Assembly: GCA_963797055.1 (NCBI GenBank)
Contig: CAWCOD010000005.1
Coordinates: forward strand, 7,947-71,946
DNA length: 64,000 nt
Source: an uncultured Holophagae bacterium
Lineage (GTDB): Bacteria; Acidobacteriota; Thermoanaerobaculia; Thermoanaerobaculales; Sulfomarinibacteraceae
Reading direction: 5' to 3'
Program-made: the position numbers and the translations under genes
The notes under the pieces: generated by a model
Seen by the model: the letters and a program-made list of their open reading frames with translations, nothing else
Told to the model about the DNA's origin: nothing
Database searches by the model: none
In this document: positions 70-46,053 of the stretch, piece by piece
How the letters are laid out: each line of letters starts with the position of its first letter
Numbering within the stretch: the first letter of the stretch is position 1

Positions 70-1432
70 ATGAACGAAGTTGCCCAAAATCTCCTCGACC
101 GCATAGACAACCACGACGCCGAGGTCGGCATCATCGGAATGGGCTATGTCGGGCTTGCCGCTTGCCCTGGCCTTTGCGGAAAAAGGCTTCAAAGTCCTCG
201 GGTTCGATGTCGACGACACCAAAGTGGAGGCGCTCAAGCGGGGCGAGAGCTACATCAAGCACCTCAACCCCGATCGCGTGGCGAAAGCCGTTGATTCGGA
301 CCGGTTGTGGGCGACGTCGGATTTCACCCGAATCGGCGATCCTGATGCGATCCTGATCTGCGTTCCAACGCCGTTGACCCCTCAGCGCGAGCCCGACATG
401 ACCTACGTTCGCCGGGCGGCGTACCAGATCCGAGAGTATCTGCGGAGGGGTCAGCTCATCATTCTCGAGTCCACGACCTACCCGGGCACGACCGATGAAC
501 TCATTCTTCCCATTCTCGAGGGATCCCGGGAGGATCGGACTCAGGGCGAAGTCAGAATTGAAGGTTCAGAATTCAGAATTGGCCGAGACTTCTTTCTGGC
601 GTTCTCCCCCGAGCGCGAAGATCCGGGCAACGCGACCTTCGGCACCACGAATACTCCAAAGGTCGTCGGCGGAGTGGACGAAGTGTCGGGTGACCTCGCC
701 CAGGCCCTTTACGACCAGATCATGGACCGTACTGTTCGCGTCTCTTCGGCCCGCGCCGCCGAGGCCACCAAACTCATGGAGAACATCTTCCGGTCGGTGA
801 ACATCGCGCTGGTCAACGAGCTCAAGATGATCTGGGACCGGATGGACATCGACGTCTGGGAGGTGCTCGACGCCGCCGAGACCAAGCCCTTCGGATTCAT
901 GAGGTTCAACCCCGGCCCCGGCCTCGGAGGACACTGCATTCCCATCGATCCGTTCTACCTGGCGTGGAAGGCTCGTGAACACGGCGTGACAACAAAGTTC
1001 ATCGAGGTCGCCGGTGAAGTGAACATCCAGACCCCGGAGTACGTCATCGAGAAGTTGGTCCATGCGCTGAACGACCGACGCAAACCGGTCAGGGATTCCA
1101 AGATCCTCGTGCTTGGTCTTGCCTACAAGAAAGACATCGACGATCCGCGGGAGAGTCCGTCCTTCGAGATCATCGAGGCCCTGCTCCAGCTCGGCGCCGA
1201 CGTCAGCTACCACGACCCGTTGATTCCAACCGCGCCCAGTATGAGGAGCTGGCCGGACCTTCCCCCCATGCACTCGATCGATCTGGACACCGACCTCGGG
1301 CGTTTCGATGCCGCGGTGCTCGTCACCGACCACTCCGACGTGGACTACGACGCCCTCGCCGACGAGCTCGATCTCATCGTCGATACCCGCGGCATCTATC
1401 GCGCGCCACGACCAAACGTCGTGAAGGCGTGA
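70..1432 (+). pseudogene. Nucleotide-sugar dehydrogenase (UDP-N-acetyl-D-mannosamine/glucosamine dehydrogenase family), frameshifted near 157
   Basis: ORF 70..294 (frame 1) gives MNEVAQNLLDRIDNHDAEVGIIGMGYVGL, the Rossmann GxGxxG start. ORF 146..1432 (frame 2) continues PLALAFAEKGFKVLGFDVD and carries GGHCIPIDP and LGLAYKKDIDDPRESP. One extra base around 155-160 separates them. Confidence 0.85.
552..579 (+). repeat. Heptamer tract (TCAGAAT-type, 4 units) embedded in the dehydrogenase coding sequence
   Basis: tcagaat tgaaggt tcagaat tcagaat read directly. It encodes part of ...EVRIEGSEFRIG..., a locally AT-rich patch in a GC-rich gene. Confidence 0.6.
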
Positions 1433-1436
1433 CTGT

Positions 1437-1485
1437 GATTTCGAATTTCGAATTGCAGATTGCAGATTGCAGATTGCAGATTGAC
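1437..1485. repeat. Heptamer tandem array (GATTTCG/GATTGCA, 7 units)
   Basis: gatttcg aatttcg aattgca gattgca gattgca gattgca gattgac. It starts 5 nt after the dehydrogenase stop. Confidence 0.9.
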
Positions 1486-1525
1486 ATGATTGGTTTGTTT
1501 GGGACGATTGGTACATCTGAATATC

Positions 1526-1972
1526 ATGGTTGAGATCAAGAGGTTTGAAGATCTTGAAGTTTGGCAAGCGGCCCGAAAGCTGACGAACATGATCTATGAC
1601 GTTTCTGATGAAGGGCAGTTCGCTCGAGATTTCGGACTTCGCGACCAGATTCGCAGGGCTTCCGTGTCGGTCATGTCGAATATTGCGGAAGGGTTTGAAA
1701 GTCACACAACCAAACTGTTTATGAACTACCTGGGTCGAGCGAAAGGGTCAGCTGGTGAGGTAAGATCGCAGCTCTACGTAGCTCTCGACAGAGGATATGT
1801 CGATCGAGGTCCTTTTGAGGAATTGGCACGGCAGGCGTTAAATCTGAGTCGGCAAATCAGTGGATTTGCTGGATATCTCAAACACGCTGAAACGAAGTTC
1901 AAGATTCGCGAAAATCTCCCCTACTGCGACGAAAACTACGGTCTATCCTCAAGAGAACTTGAACGAAGTTGA
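1526..1972 (+). CDS. Four-helix-bundle protein (23S rRNA intervening-sequence protein family)
   Basis: MVEIKRFEDLEVWQAARKL...SNIAEGFES...GSAGEVRSQLYVA is the characteristic pattern of this family. The internal ATG at 1526 is preferred to 1490. The gene is visibly AT-richer than its neighbours. Confidence 0.85.
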   Translation: MVEIKRFEDLEVWQAARKLTNMIYDVSDEGQFARDFGLRDQIRRASVSVMSNIAEGFESHTTKLFMNYLGRAKGSAGEVRSQLYVALDRGYVDRGPFEELARQALNLSRQISGFAGYLKHAETKFKIRENLPYCDENYGLSSRELERS

Positions 1973-1995
1973 CAGACGCGGAAAAACCTCGAACC

Positions 1996-2030
1996 CAATC
2001 TGCAATTTGCAATCTGTAATCTGCAATCGA
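1996..2030. repeat. Heptamer tandem array (CAATCTG, 5 units), inverted relative to 1437-1485
   Basis: caatctg caatttg caatctg taatctg caatcga. The reverse complement tcgattgcagattacagattgcaaattgcagattg closely matches the upstream array. Confidence 0.9.
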
Positions 2031-2117
2031 CGATGAGCACGCAGATCAATTATTCGTCGAGAGAAATGGACCTGAAGTGACCAATAACGATCCGGCAATC
2101 AATGTGGAGACCCCGCT

Positions 2118-4274
2118 ATGACCGAAAACTACCAAGGACCCTATCCCAACCCATACCCGCCACAGAGCCCGGGCCCGGTGCCGCCGTGGCCGCAGCCGCC
2201 CATGGCGTGGGCGGAGGAGGCGGAATCCGAAATCAACGTCATGGACTACGTCCGCCTCATCTGGTCGCGGAAGTGGATCGTGCTCGGGGTGGCGGTCGTG
2301 GTCGTGTTGCTGGGTACGGCCTGGGCGCTGACTCAGAAGAAGATGTACCGTGCCGAGACCAAGATCACCATCTATCCGGCGCCTCAGCTCACCCAGAATC
2401 AGCTCGACATGGCCATGAGCTGGTGGCAGATGGACCGGTTCATCTCCGATCAGATGGAGATCCTGCAGACTCGGAAAATGGCCGAGCGGGTGGTGGAGAG
2501 GGTGGGTCTGAATCAGCACCCGGAGTTCGCCGGCGGCGATGCCGTCGGAGCACTCCTGAGCCGCATCTCGGTCGAACCCGTTCGAGACTCCTTTGTGGTT
2601 CAGGTGTCGATGGTGGGCTACGAACCCGAGACCACGGCCGAATGGCTCAACCTCTATGTGGACGAGTACATCTCGGCCAACATCGAGTCGAGCATCGGAC
2701 GGACCCAGGAGATCTACAGCGTCATCCAGGACCGGCTTGCGCCTCTCCGCAAGAGGGTCAAACAGTCCGAGGAAGACCTCATGGCGTTTCGTGAGCGCGA
2801 CACCGAAATGCTCTTCGCCGACGAGGACAAGAACGTCATCTCGGAGCAGATCGAAACCCTGACCACGGAGTACGCTTCGGCCAAGGCCGAGCGGATCCGG
2901 CTCGAGACGCGGCTCAACGCGGTGGATGCTCTGTCGGCGACGAATCTGGCCGAAACCAGCTTCCCGGCGGTGCTGACCGACGTCACCATCCAGGGTCTGT
3001 TGCAGCAGAAGGCCGCCCTCGAGGTGGAGCTCACCGAGAAGCTCCGGTCCATGAAGGAGGGCCACCCGCAGGTGCAGCAGCTGCGGTCGTCCATCGCCGC
3101 GGTCAACGGACGCATCTACGAGCAGATCCAGACCATCAAGACCTCGCTCAGGACCGAGTACGACATGGTGCGGCGGCGGGAAGGATCCCTCTACTCGAAT
3201 ATCCAGCAGCTCAAGGGGGAGTCCATCGGTCTGTCCAAGCAGACGCTCGAGTACCGCGGACTCGAAGAGGAGTACCGGCAGAACAAGGCCTTTCTGGAAG
3301 ACATGTTGGCCCGGTCCAAAGAGGCCGACATCTCCGGGACGACCGCGGTCAACAACATCAACGTGATCGAGCCGGCGCGACCGCCCGGCGGACCGTTCAA
3401 ACCCAACGTCAAGCAAGCGGCAACGTTGTCCACAGTCCTTGGCCTGCTGCTCGGGGTGGGTCTGGTGCTCATGCTCGATTTCCTCGATCACACCGTGCGC
3501 ACCCCCGAGCAGGTCGAGCGTTACCTGGGTTTGGAAACCCTCACCGTGCTGCCCAAGTTCACCGAGGATGCAACTCGGGCCATGCGCGAGGCCTTCCAGT
3601 CGCTGCGCACGGCCGTGATCCTGTCGGCGCGCGGAACCGGCAGCCATGTCATGCAGGTGACCTCGGCGGTGCCGTCCGAGGGCAAGACCACCGTGGCCTG
3701 GAATCTCTCCAAGGTGCTGGCTACAGGTGGGGCCAAGGTGCTGTTGATCGACGCGGACCTCAGAAAGCCCAGGATCCACCGCCTGATCAACGCCAAGAAC
3801 GTCCGCGGCCTGACCTCGGTTGTGCTTGGTGAACGAGGCCTTGACGAGGTGATCCACCAGCTGCCCGATATCCCCAACCTGCACATCGTCACCTCGGGTC
3901 CGCTGCCGCCCAACCCGCCGGAGCTCTTCGGAAAGGGGACCTTCCTCAGGATGCTGGCCGGGGCCCGCGAGAACTACGATTGGGTCATCTTGGATACTCC
4001 TCCGGTCACCTCGGTCACGGATCCGGTGATGGCGTCGCGAACCGTGGACATGCTGCTGCTGGTGGTGCAGTACGGCGGCGCCCGCCGCGAACTCGCACGA
4101 GAAGCCGTCCGGTTGTTGTCACGAACCGGCGTTCGGATCTCCGGCGCAGTCCTCAACCAGGTGGACATGGACAAGGACCACTACTACTACTCGGGCTATT
4201 ACTCCTACTATCACTACGGTGAAGAACCGTCCAAGAGCTCCGGAAAGAGGAAGAGCAAGGCGAAAGCGAGCTGA
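2118..4274 (+). CDS. Polysaccharide co-polymerase / tyrosine autokinase (Wzc/GumC-type BY-kinase)
   Basis: N-terminal Wzz-type domain with TM segments and a coiled-coil middle. C-terminal Walker A SAVPSEGKTT, A' LLIDADLRKP and B VILDTPP, plus the terminal Tyr cluster DHYYYSGYYSYYHYG. Confidence 0.93.
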   Translation: MTENYQGPYPNPYPPQSPGPVPPWPQPPMAWAEEAESEINVMDYVRLIWSRKWIVLGVAVVVVLLGTAWALTQKKMYRAETKITIYPAPQLTQNQLDMAMSWWQMDRFISDQMEILQTRKMAERVVERVGLNQHPEFAGGDAVGALLSRISVEPVRDSFVVQVSMVGYEPETTAEWLNLYVDEYISANIESSIGRTQEIYSVIQDRLAPLRKRVKQSEEDLMAFRERDTEMLFADEDKNVISEQIETLTTEYASAKAERIRLETRLNAVDALSATNLAETSFPAVLTDVTIQGLLQQKAALEVELTEKLRSMKEGHPQVQQLRSSIAAVNGRIYEQIQTIKTSLRTEYDMVRRREGSLYSNIQQLKGESIGLSKQTLEYRGLEEEYRQNKAFLEDMLARSKEADISGTTAVNNINVIEPARPPGGPFKPNVKQAATLSTVLGLLLGVGLVLMLDFLDHTVRTPEQVERYLGLETLTVLPKFTEDATRAMREAFQSLRTAVILSARGTGSHVMQVTSAVPSEGKTTVAWNLSKVLATGGAKVLLIDADLRKPRIHRLINAKNVRGLTSVVLGERGLDEVIHQLPDIPNLHIVTSGPLPPNPPELFGKGTFLRMLAGARENYDWVILDTPPVTSVTDPVMASRTVDMLLLVVQYGGARRELAREAVRLLSRTGVRISGAVLNQVDMDKDHYYYSGYYSYYHYGEEPSKSSGKRKSKAKAS

Positions 4275-45943: not shown

Positions 45944-46053
45944 TTGAATTCTCAATTTTCAATTGTGAATTCTCAATGACCGCATCGGTAGGCATCCGGT
46001 CCACCCGGGCGGGTGGAGGAATTCAAAATTCAAAATTCAAAATTAAGAATTCT
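45944..46053. repeat. Long imperfect palindrome: heptamer array, palindromic box CCACCCGGGCGGGTGG, inverted heptamer array
   Basis: cttgaattctcaattttcaattgtgaattctcaat ... ccacccgggcgggtgg ... ggaattcaaaattcaaaattcaaaattaagaattc. Confidence 0.9.

Follow-up and report, generated by a model that had tools for sequence, protein, structure and literature searches.

In an uncultured Holophagae bacterium, the gene of a 148-aa protein of the PF05635/TIGR02436 four-helix-bundle (4HB) family is enclosed by two mutually complementary arrays of about 4-5 heptamers, and we show that this combination of gene and inverted arms recurs as a linked unit in bacteria of about 20 phyla, within the branch of the family that was sampled. 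The analysed window is a stretch of 64,000 nucleotides (assembly GCA_963797055.1, contig CAWCOD010000005.1, positions 7,947 to 71,946); all coordinates refer to this window. We interpret positions 1437-2030 as one copy of a hairpin cassette, which has the same design as the ORF-bearing intervening sequence (IVS) of 23S rRNA but lies between two protein-coding genes. The locus consists of the following features:

70..1432 (+): upstream host gene of the UDP-glucose/GDP-mannose dehydrogenase family (Pfam PF03721, PF00984 and PF03720); the reading frame shifts near 157-165 in this assembly, the N-terminal 29 aa being in the frame starting at 70 and the rest in ORF 146-1432.
1427..2043 (+): predicted RNA hairpin, a stem of about 31 bp made of the two arrays plus a few outer pairs, closing a loop of about 510 nt that holds the ORF.
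1437..1485 (+): left arm, GATTTCG x2 followed by GATTGCA/ATTGCAG x4.6.
1486..1525 (+): 5' leader between arm and start codon, without a clear Shine-Dalgarno sequence; one weak promoter-like match at 1499-1527.
1526..1972 (+): four-helix-bundle gene, 148 aa, the cargo of the predicted hairpin.
1973..1995 (+): 3' spacer between stop codon and right arm.
1996..2030 (+): right arm, CAATCTG x4.7, the reverse complement of the left arm; two units carry single-step variants (CAATTTG, TAATCTG).
2031..2117 (+): spacer to the wzc start.
2118..4274 (+): downstream host gene, a Wzc-like chain-length determinant/tyrosine kinase (Pfam Wzz, GNVR, AAA_31).

The original prediction, according to which a four-helix-bundle gene lies between inverted heptamer arrays, was confirmed at the level of the sequence. 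Tandem Repeats Finder reported ATTTCGA x2.4 (1438-1454) and ATTGCAG x4.6 (1452-1483, 100% matches) on the left, and CAATCTG x4.7 (1996-2028) on the right. A search for inverted repeats paired 1452-1483 with 1996-2027; these arms are 32 nt long, complementary at 30 of 32 positions (94%) and 512 nt apart. Both mismatches are G:T on the + strand. The ORF matches PF05635 (E 2e-32, 112 bits, cut-off 33.8) and TIGR02436 (98.7 bits, cut-off 24). An AlphaFold model (pLDDT 86.4) shows four long helices, and its best PDB matches in a Foldseek comparison are XCC0516 (2GSC, TM 0.90) and BT_0352 (2RLD, TM 0.86); the sequence match to 2GSC has an E-value of 4.9e-12. The interior of the cassette has a GC content of 48%, compared with 62.9% for the genome. 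The gene itself has 50% GC and an atypical codon usage; our codon log-odds gene finder did not call it and misses the AT-richer 4HB genes, which is why these were added by hand to the flank test described below. No other credible ORF and no transposase lie inside the arms, the 4HB gene being the only ORF with a family match. A scan for promoters and terminators gave nothing above shuffled sequences, Rfam had no match within 1300-2200, and PADLOC gave no defence-system match. Both the minimum-free-energy fold and the centroid fold close the cassette with the stem formed by the two arrays (-209.6 kcal/mol, z -3.4).

Heptamer arrays are frequent in this genome. We counted about 1,680 merged arrays, which fill most intergenic spacers; exact arrays of period 7 (395) far outnumber those of period 6 (67) and period 8 (17), and GATTGCA is the commonest unit (139 arrays). 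According to our gene calls, 20 of the 23 arrays of the window are intergenic. Moreover, inverted pairs also enclose ordinary genes such as Skp, a short-chain dehydrogenase, HemK and thioredoxin. A chance juxtaposition had therefore to be excluded. In order to do so, the upstream flank of each gene was scored against the reverse complement of its downstream flank. The 148-aa gene scored 27, a value reached by only 0.25% of 1,598 other genes of the genome coding for 100-300 aa. Six to seven of the 17 PF05635 paralogues are in the top 2% of this background (binomial about 1e-6). The five best-scoring paralogues are each enclosed by inverted arrays with five different units, namely GATTGCA, GTTAAAC, AATTGCG, CAAGATG, and the hexamer GAGCCC. 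Together with the comparisons given below, these findings contradict chance as an explanation, which we regard as very unlikely. In contrast, the other GATTGCA-class arrays of the window (33593, 35106, 38435, 41781) have no inverted partner within 3 kb. The original prediction had described them as solo or empty versions of the cassette; they are solo arrays and not empty sites.

The linkage is not restricted to this genome. In 20 of 28 relatives (24 genera), the best 4HB gene has a flank score of 16 or more, each with its own unit. For a comparison across phyla, loci were collected with an alignment of five sequences, as an alignment of 26 sequences had no conserved stretch; this choice biases the sample, the cross-phylum loci being the 80 closest to one subfamily. 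Of 108 loci, 92 have arrays on both sides and none lacks arrays; the period is 7 or 14 in about 88%, and the median copy number is 4.4. Among 103 scorable loci from about 20 phyla, 82.5% reach a score of 16 or more, compared with 0.5% of 197 offset controls taken from the same loci (p 3e-41). These controls replaced a mismatched-pair control, which had a fat tail because unrelated loci share units. Examples are a plasmid of Nostoc sp. ATCC 53789 (GGGGAAA / TTTCCCC) and a Riemerella record (AGGTTTA / TAAACCT). Culturable carriers include Nostoc punctiforme PCC 73102 and Nostoc sp. ATCC 53789.

Several comparisons indicate that the cassette behaves as an insert (in the following, compared genomes are denoted by G numbers). 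The spacer between imuB and dnaE2 comprises only 7-16 nt and contains no arrays in six relatives (G027, G029, G032, G033, G036 and G037). In three others (G028, G031 and G034), the same junction holds 700-810 nt of arms plus gene, starting right after the imuB stop codon. G031 and G034, which belong to the same genus, differ in their unit, and the synonymous difference is 0.71 in the 4HB gene but 0.20 in the adjacent imuB. Copy number runs from 1 to 66 within the genus. In G001 (same genus), the gene occurs at the same place as in the window, just upstream of wzc, with arms. G000 has CAGATTG and G001 has CAAATTA at the same site, in both arms, and G000 also holds the single-step intermediates; thus, between species both arms change together. 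The 4HB protein is under purifying selection, dN/dS being 0.06 for the pair G030-G039. Furthermore, an 8.4-kb duplicate of the locus exists on contig C14 of this genome. Its flanks are 91-94% identical; BLAST nucleotide identity was used here because indels between the copies spoiled a dN/dS estimate. The duplicate, a 93.9%-identical locus, shares the left, dehydrogenase-side arm, and homology stops at the inner edge of this arm. It carries a 64%-identical 4HB gene in the opposite orientation, and it lacks the spacer 2031-2117, the arm lying about 20 nt from the ATG of wzc.

The central interpretation of the original prediction, that these genes and the inverted arrays are linked, is supported: paralogues of the genome possess flanking arrays, and the related genome G001 has gene and arms at this position, so that neither of the two observations named beforehand as refuting it was made. 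Empty and filled sites support insertion, and the swapped, flipped cassette of the duplicate supports replacement. The statement that the family has no established function has to be corrected insofar as one branch, Avd of diversity-generating retroelements (DGRs), is characterised.

From these data, we conclude that gene and arms are a linked unit in the sampled branch, that the unit is present or absent at precise junctions, that the cargo can be replaced and can sit in either orientation between retained arms, that the arms change together and stay complementary, and that the protein is under purifying selection. The remainder of our explanation is inferred, including transcript processing and excision, the transposition mechanism and the role of the protein. 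In this view, the cassette would be transcribed with its host operon, and the arms would pair into a double-stranded RNA stem of about 31 bp that is cut by RNase III, as shown experimentally for the Coxiella IVS. This would release the cassette RNA from the host message whichever way the cargo points. The element would spread, or once have spread, by an unknown route that needs no transposase of its own. We are highly confident that the locus belongs to this class of gene plus arms, and it is probable that it is or was an insertable element; that RNase III cutting of an RNA stem is how the arms act is a tentative proposal, slightly less likely than not. For the explanation as a whole our confidence is moderate. 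Several findings call for caution. Among arm mismatches, 24 are G:U and 20 are A:C on the sense strand (p 0.65); an RNA-level constraint is therefore not detectable, and a DNA-level process would fit as well. Where the cassette sits inside dnaE2 (G025, G035), the host frame stays open through it, which implies that at least some transcripts are translated through it and not cut; the resulting protein would have about 190 extra residues. An RNase III gene is present, but it carries a 1-nt frameshift in this assembly, which is probably an assembly error. There is no mobility signature, as neither a target-site duplication nor an enzyme was found. Finally, arrays persist in G027, which has no PF05635 gene.

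The lack of strand bias is compatible with an alternative, in which the arms act at the DNA level as parts of a foldback-type element. The inverted arrays would then be recombination or transposition substrates handled by a trans-acting enzyme, for example a REP-associated Y1 transposase, or by template switching at hairpins, and the 4HB gene would be passive or selfish cargo. The flipped cargo of the C14 duplicate fits this idea, and so do dispersed gene-less foldbacks with the same units: 47 short inverted pairs were found in this genome, and in-frame foldbacks occur at the dnaE2 site. In G039 the two arms are perfect complements down to the order of variant units, while the orthologous G030 arms are not, which suggests arm-to-arm correction. 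In addition, a Y1_Tnp (IS200-like) gene is itself flanked by arrays (C11:35248-35994), although nothing beyond adjacency ties this transposase to the arrays. On the other hand, a comparison of filled and empty imuB|dnaE2 junctions revealed no target-site duplication that can be told apart from the arms themselves. There are no near-identical copies of the armed subfamily, as armed paralogues differ in gene (56-64% aa identity) and in arm unit; a second, 135-aa subfamily does form 80-90%-identical dispersed copies. The strong purifying selection argues that the gene is not dead cargo. Thus, of the features of an IS or MITE-type element, filled and empty sites are observed, whereas an own transposase, a target-site duplication and several near-identical copies are not. 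We consider the DNA-level alternative unlikely, but it is not excluded.

A further possibility, which does not exclude the main explanation, is that the arms are the cognate binding sites of the 4HB protein. The solved members of the family are pentameric rings; each subunit would read one heptamer of a single-stranded arm of about five units, much as TRAP reads 11 triplets, and protein and unit would co-evolve. Binding would compete with arm pairing, giving autoregulation, or would mark the element for copying. In agreement with this idea, the median arm length is 4.4 units (IQR 4.0-5.1). The units share a loose AG-K-D-G-T-Y form, although the rotation-optimised consensus overstates how conserved the unit is, and the polarity is strict, with the G-rich arm first in 76 loci and the C-rich arm first in 4. 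Protein identity and unit similarity correlate (Mantel rho -0.20, 0 of 500 permutations), also below 70% identity; however, co-inheritance of gene and arms explains this correlation equally well. In G031, the unit of its single 4HB cassette dominates the genome (480 array hits compared with 10 for the G034 unit), and its gene-less foldback inside dnaE2 uses the same unit. In contrast, G034 has both units in numbers (117 and 86), and a reversed-pattern control for GGGGCTC was invalid in this genome search because the reversed repeat is a rotation of the same unit. Avd, a family member, is a nucleic-acid-binding cofactor. However, G027 has arrays without a 4HB gene, and arrays across the genome of the window have the same length distribution whether or not a 4HB gene is near. 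On present evidence, this model is unlikely.

Two other readings were rejected. An Avd protein of a DGR, with template or variable repeats, is practically excluded: although the model has the same fold as Avd (4DWL, TM 0.84), the protein has no match to the Avd equivalog model NF033474, no reverse transcriptase and no long template/variable repeat pair lie nearby, the ORFs within 6 kb are the dehydrogenase, Wzc and a flippase-like membrane protein, and the repeats are short tandem heptamers. An integron cassette was dismissed on the lack of an attC-type single site alone.

These findings may bear on two old puzzles. rRNA intervening sequences and their S23p ORFs have been known since about 1990 without a function or an origin, and bacterial heptamer repeats are equally unexplained. 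This locus and its relatives show that gene and inverted heptamer arms are one conserved, insertable unit, which also lives in ordinary operons and even inside open reading frames, and this makes both puzzles accessible to direct experiments. For annotation it matters that these cassettes split operons, add putatively translated inserts to genes such as dnaE2, and mark hot spots of local rearrangement. A more far-reaching hypothesis, which we consider unlikely but not excluded, is that PF05635 proteins and inverted heptamer arrays form one genetic system found across bacteria, in which the pentameric protein would recognise the heptamer unit of its own arms. Gene-bearing hairpins would be the autonomous form; gene-less foldbacks and solo arrays would be their derivatives, including cyanobacterial STRR, the Xanthomonas GGGAATC pairs and the roughly 1,700 arrays of this genome. 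rRNA intervening sequences would simply be the copies that landed in rRNA helices. This would explain both what the IVS proteins do and why heptamers are the over-represented long simple-sequence repeat in bacteria.

Among known systems, REPIN/RAYT (Bertels & Rainey 2011, PMC3116915) likewise has hairpin-forming inverted repeats dispersed between genes, but REP units are fixed palindromes and not tandem heptamers, and there is no evidence that a RAYT acts on the arms described here. Eukaryotic foldback transposons have long inverted ends built of short tandem repeats and sometimes carry cargo. Avd (PDB 4DWL, 8UBE) shares fold and Pfam family and is a pentameric nucleic-acid-binding cofactor, but differs in the points given above. 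Heptanucleotide simple-sequence repeats such as cyanobacterial STRR comprise hundreds to thousands of short, mostly intergenic 7-nt arrays per genome, as is the case here; in the literature searched, no gene cargo or paired-arm logic has been attached to STRR. In Xanthomonas, G-rich intergenic GGGAATC heptamers often form convergent pairs on opposite strands (70-75 pairs per genome; Rehm et al. 2015, PMC4692102). That paper treats the repeats as G-quadruplex formers and names no protein family, and most pairs are gene-less; however, its supplementary table places a GGGAATC x4 array over the start codon of XCC0516, the structurally solved member of the 4HB family.

The nearest published case is the Coxiella 23S rRNA IVS (2016, PMC4990558, where Leptospira, Brucella and Haemophilus IVSs are cited as well). 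It carries an ORF of the same family (S23p, the XCC0516-type four-helix bundle, for which a homopentameric ring is cited there) in the loop of a 28-bp stem formed by terminal complementary sequences, a length equal to four heptamers. Tandem heptamers (GACAGAT x2-3) lie just 5' of the ORF and vary in number between strains, RNase III cuts in the stem, and the authors regard the element as selfish and possibly once mobile. The locus described here shares the complementary termini enclosing an S23p-family ORF, which form a long stem in the predicted fold, and the tandem heptamers in the 5' stem region. In contrast, the Coxiella IVS is inserted in helix 45 of 23S rRNA, whereas the element of the window lies between a dehydrogenase gene and wzc and, in relatives, between imuB and dnaE2 or inside dnaE2. 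RNase III cutting is shown there and only inferred here. The Coxiella ORF is decaying and probably not translated, whereas here the family is under purifying selection.

In the region under study, the sequence reads as the original prediction described it, i.e. a four-helix-bundle (4HB) gene lying between inverted heptamer arrays, and this observation was confirmed. By means of Tandem Repeats Finder and a search for ORFs, the following features were located in the window:
1438-1454, left side, tandem array ATTTCGA x2.4
1452-1483, left side, tandem array ATTGCAG x4.6
1526-1972, the one ORF between the arrays, 148 aa
1996-2028, right side, tandem array CAATCTG x4.7

The two arrays are complementary at 30 of 32 positions over 32 nt and are 512 nt apart. 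The ORF matches PF05635 (E 2e-32) and TIGR02436, whereas it matches neither the Avd equivalog model nor any PADLOC model. An AlphaFold model of the protein (pLDDT 86.4) has four long helices and a disordered tail; it superposes on XCC0516 (2GSC, TM 0.90), BT_0352 (2RLD) and, more distantly, on Avd. The interior of the cassette has a GC content of 48% in a genome of 62.9% GC. The neighbours are a gene of the UDP-glucose/GDP-mannose dehydrogenase family and a Wzc-like gene. A further heptamer array (TTCAGAA x2.3; window 549-590, Tandem Repeats Finder 565-580) lies in frame inside the dehydrogenase ORF and encodes ...EVRIEGSEFRIG...; as most orthologues comprise 1239 nt compared to 1287 nt here, this looks like a translated array insert. 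Directly downstream of the dehydrogenase orthologue of the relative G006, after an AATTCGA array, about nine tandem copies of a unit of about 110 nt were found (locus L020, 2839-3830).

Chance had to be tested, because heptamer arrays are a genome-wide feature here. Exact arrays of period 7 number 395, in contrast to 67 for period 6 and 17 for period 8. Tandem Repeats Finder identified about 1,680 merged heptamer arrays, which are mostly AT-rich and fall into 270 unit classes, GATTGCA being the commonest; the window alone contains 23 arrays, almost all of them intergenic. Same-unit inverted pairs also enclose ordinary genes such as Skp, a short-chain dehydrogenase, HemK, thioredoxin and signal peptidase. 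Moreover, 47 short inverted pairs occur in the genome, among them a gene-less foldback between two genes at window 45947-46052 (AATTCTC-type array, 43-nt spacer, inverted AATTCAA-type array). For 1,598 genes of 100-300 aa, we therefore scored the local alignment of the upstream flank with the reverse complement of the downstream flank. The 98th percentile of these scores is 13 and the 99th is 16. The strongest inverted flanks of all small genes belong to a Skp/OmpH-like gene (contig C1:32715-33233, score 63.5). The genome contains 17 PF05635 matches; their scores include 27 (this gene), 23, 18.5, 16, 15 and 13.5, plus 15.5 for the longer called ORF at C9:21754, which means that 6-7 of 17 lie in the top 2%. 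The five best paralogues each have their own unit, namely GATTGCA, GTTAAAC, AATTGCG, CAAGATG, and the hexamer GAGCCC/GGGCTC. A second PF05635 subfamily of 135 aa forms dispersed copies of 0.55-0.9 kb at 80-90% nucleotide identity, with at least 9 copies in this genome (loci L006-L014, e.g. L008 1259-2162); about 15 evenly scoring copies appear among the matches listed for the relative G004. Its inverted arms are more degenerate (for example GACAGCG-type, 50 nt at 70%) and were missed by the flank window of our scoring. It carries a conserved nested hairpin, and an inverted copy of the first codons of the ORF lies 108 nt away (L008 1827-1847 / 1956-1976).

In order to extend the comparison, we examined the best PF05635 gene of each of 28 relatives (24 genera, two families). 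Twenty of these score 16 or more, again each with a different unit. A scan of one genome per species, based on an alignment of five of these proteins, returned 80 loci from Proteobacteria, Planctomycetota, Chloroflexota, Bacteroidota, Clostridia, Treponema, Verrucomicrobiota, Gemmatimonadota, Acidimicrobiia, a Kaiserbacteria genome and others; pooled with the loci above, these gave 108. Of the 108 loci, 92 have tandem arrays on both sides, 16 on one side, and none lacks arrays. The period is 7 or 14 in about 88%, and the median copy number is 4.4. A flank score of 16 or more is reached by 82.5% of 103 scorable loci, but only by 0.5% of 197 offset pseudo-genes in the same loci (Mann-Whitney p 3e-41). 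Note that the 80 loci are those closest to one subfamily; the high fraction applies to this branch and not to all of PF05635. The G-rich arm comes first in 76 loci and the C-rich arm first in 4. Two annotated records show the same design: a plasmid of Nostoc sp. ATCC 53789 (GGGGAAA... gene ...TTTCCCC) and a Riemerella anatipestifer record (AGGTTTA... gene ...TAAACCT).

Evidence that the unit is inserted and replaced came from the comparison of junctions among the relatives. In six of them (G027, G029, G032, G033, G036, G037), the imuB stop codon and the dnaE2 start region are 7-16 nt apart, with no arrays. In contrast, the same junction holds 700-810 nt of arms plus gene in G028, G031 and G034, beginning immediately after the imuB TGA. 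G027, G031 and G034 belong to one genus. G031 and G034 use different units (CGTGGTC and GGGGCTC), and their 4HB genes differ at 71% of synonymous sites, whereas the adjacent imuB differs at 20%; they are therefore separate insertions or replacements, and not one insert diverging in place. In G034, the left arm upstream of the 4HB gene is part of a unit of about 100 nt (G-rich array, G-box, C-rich array), which is repeated 2-3 times in tandem, i.e. small foldbacks are stacked beside the cassette (locus L152, 698-960). No target-site duplication could be separated from the arms. Within the genus of the genome under study, copy number ranges from 1 to 66.

A site inside dnaE2 was found as well. 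In G025 and G035, the cassette sits between the conserved PIDVN and RLGLR motifs, and the dnaE2 frame stays open through all of it (187-190 extra residues), in a frame other than that of the 4HB gene (loci L053 of G035 and L049 of G025, about 1330-1900 in gene orientation). At the same site, G027, G031 and G034 have gene-less in-frame heptamer foldbacks of 44-77 residues, which in G031 and G034 are built of each genome's own unit. In several genomes of the window's own family (G005:C18, G007:C5, G011:C44, G012:C6), a 4HB gene lies about 1.9 kb upstream of the dnaE2 start, whereas in the sister family it lies between imuB and dnaE2, or inside dnaE2. This is a recurrent association with the imuB-dnaE2 mutagenesis operon.

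A duplicate of this very locus gave further insight. The segments C5:3748-12172 and C14:2950-11337 of this genome are 92-94% identical. The rest of C14 is unique, apart from a 9.5-kb overlap at 97.7% identity between its far end and the start of C15 (C14:162273-171823 and C15:1-9552), which is either an assembly join or a repeat; the C5/C14 pair is consequently a segmental duplication and not a co-binned strain. Homology runs through the dehydrogenase-side arm, stops at its inner edge, and resumes about 15 nt before the wzc ATG. Between those points lies a different 4HB gene (64% identical in the core) in the opposite orientation. Because the arms are inverted copies of each other, either orientation leaves the same arms on the host strand.

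The arms stay complementary while they change. G001, a genome of the same genus, has the closest relative of this gene (74% amino acid identity) at the same place, just upstream of wzc. Its unit is CAAATTA where the window has CAGATTG; the two G-to-A changes are mirrored by C-to-T changes in the other arm, and the window's right arm holds the single-step variants. In G039, the two arms are perfect complements down to the order of variant units, whereas in the orthologous cassette of G030 they are not. Protein identity and unit similarity are correlated (Mantel rho -0.20, 0 of 500 permutations), and the protein is under purifying selection (dN/dS 0.06 for the G030-G039 pair). DNA-level arm correction and a model of repeat recognition by the protein both remain possible; neither is exclusive of the RNA reading described below. 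A candidate for a trans-acting enzyme of the foldback repeats is a Y1_Tnp (IS200-like, RAYT-type) gene of this genome, which is itself flanked by heptamer arrays (C11:35248-35994; inverted flank score 27, direct 95).

With respect to the mode of action, the fold of 1425-2045 as RNA is predicted to close on a stem of about 31 bp made of the two arrays, both in the minimum-free-energy and in the centroid structure (z -3.4). [quoted passage not shown] It has an S23p ORF in the loop of a 28-bp stem of terminal inverted repeats, tandem GACAGAT heptamers lie 5' of the ORF in numbers that vary between strains, and RNase III cuts within the stem, at the start of the first repeat. We therefore infer that the arms make an RNase III substrate, which would separate the cassette RNA from the operon transcript in either cargo orientation. 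A possible reason for the G-first polarity, which is likewise our inference only, is that a C-rich arm emerging first would offer a Rho loading site. Three findings speak against the RNA reading. Arm mismatches show no excess of G:U over A:C (24 vs 20); the read-through in dnaE2 implies that cutting is at most partial; and the RNase III gene of this assembly (C5:114743-115119, outside the window) has a 1-nt frameshift. The latter lies in a CCC run where one C appears to be missing. The dehydrogenase gene of the window is also frameshifted: its N-terminus (MNEVAQ...GMGYVGL; window 70-170) is in a different frame from the rest of the gene, with an extra G near 157-165. Both are probably assembly indel errors, not pseudogenes. 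Taken together, the link between gene and arrays put forward in the original prediction is supported by these data; the mechanism, however, is only partly shown, as cutting by RNase III is inferred from the predicted fold and the Coxiella precedent.

In the papers we could search, nothing links this protein family to heptamer arrays beyond the Coxiella description, and a 2024 paper on rRNA insertions in CPR bacteria still calls the domain functionally uncharacterised. Rehm et al. (2015) describe inverted GGGAATC pairs in Xanthomonas without naming a gene; nevertheless, their own table puts such an array on the start codon of XCC0516. The protein studied here is a member of PF05635/TIGR02436. 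The element is not a DGR, and it lacks the marks of an IS or MITE, as there is no transposase, no target duplication that could be separated from the arms, and there are no identical copies. It is inferred to work like an rRNA IVS but is not one, because it is not in rRNA; compared with the known cases, it is an IVS-type hairpin cassette located outside rRNA.
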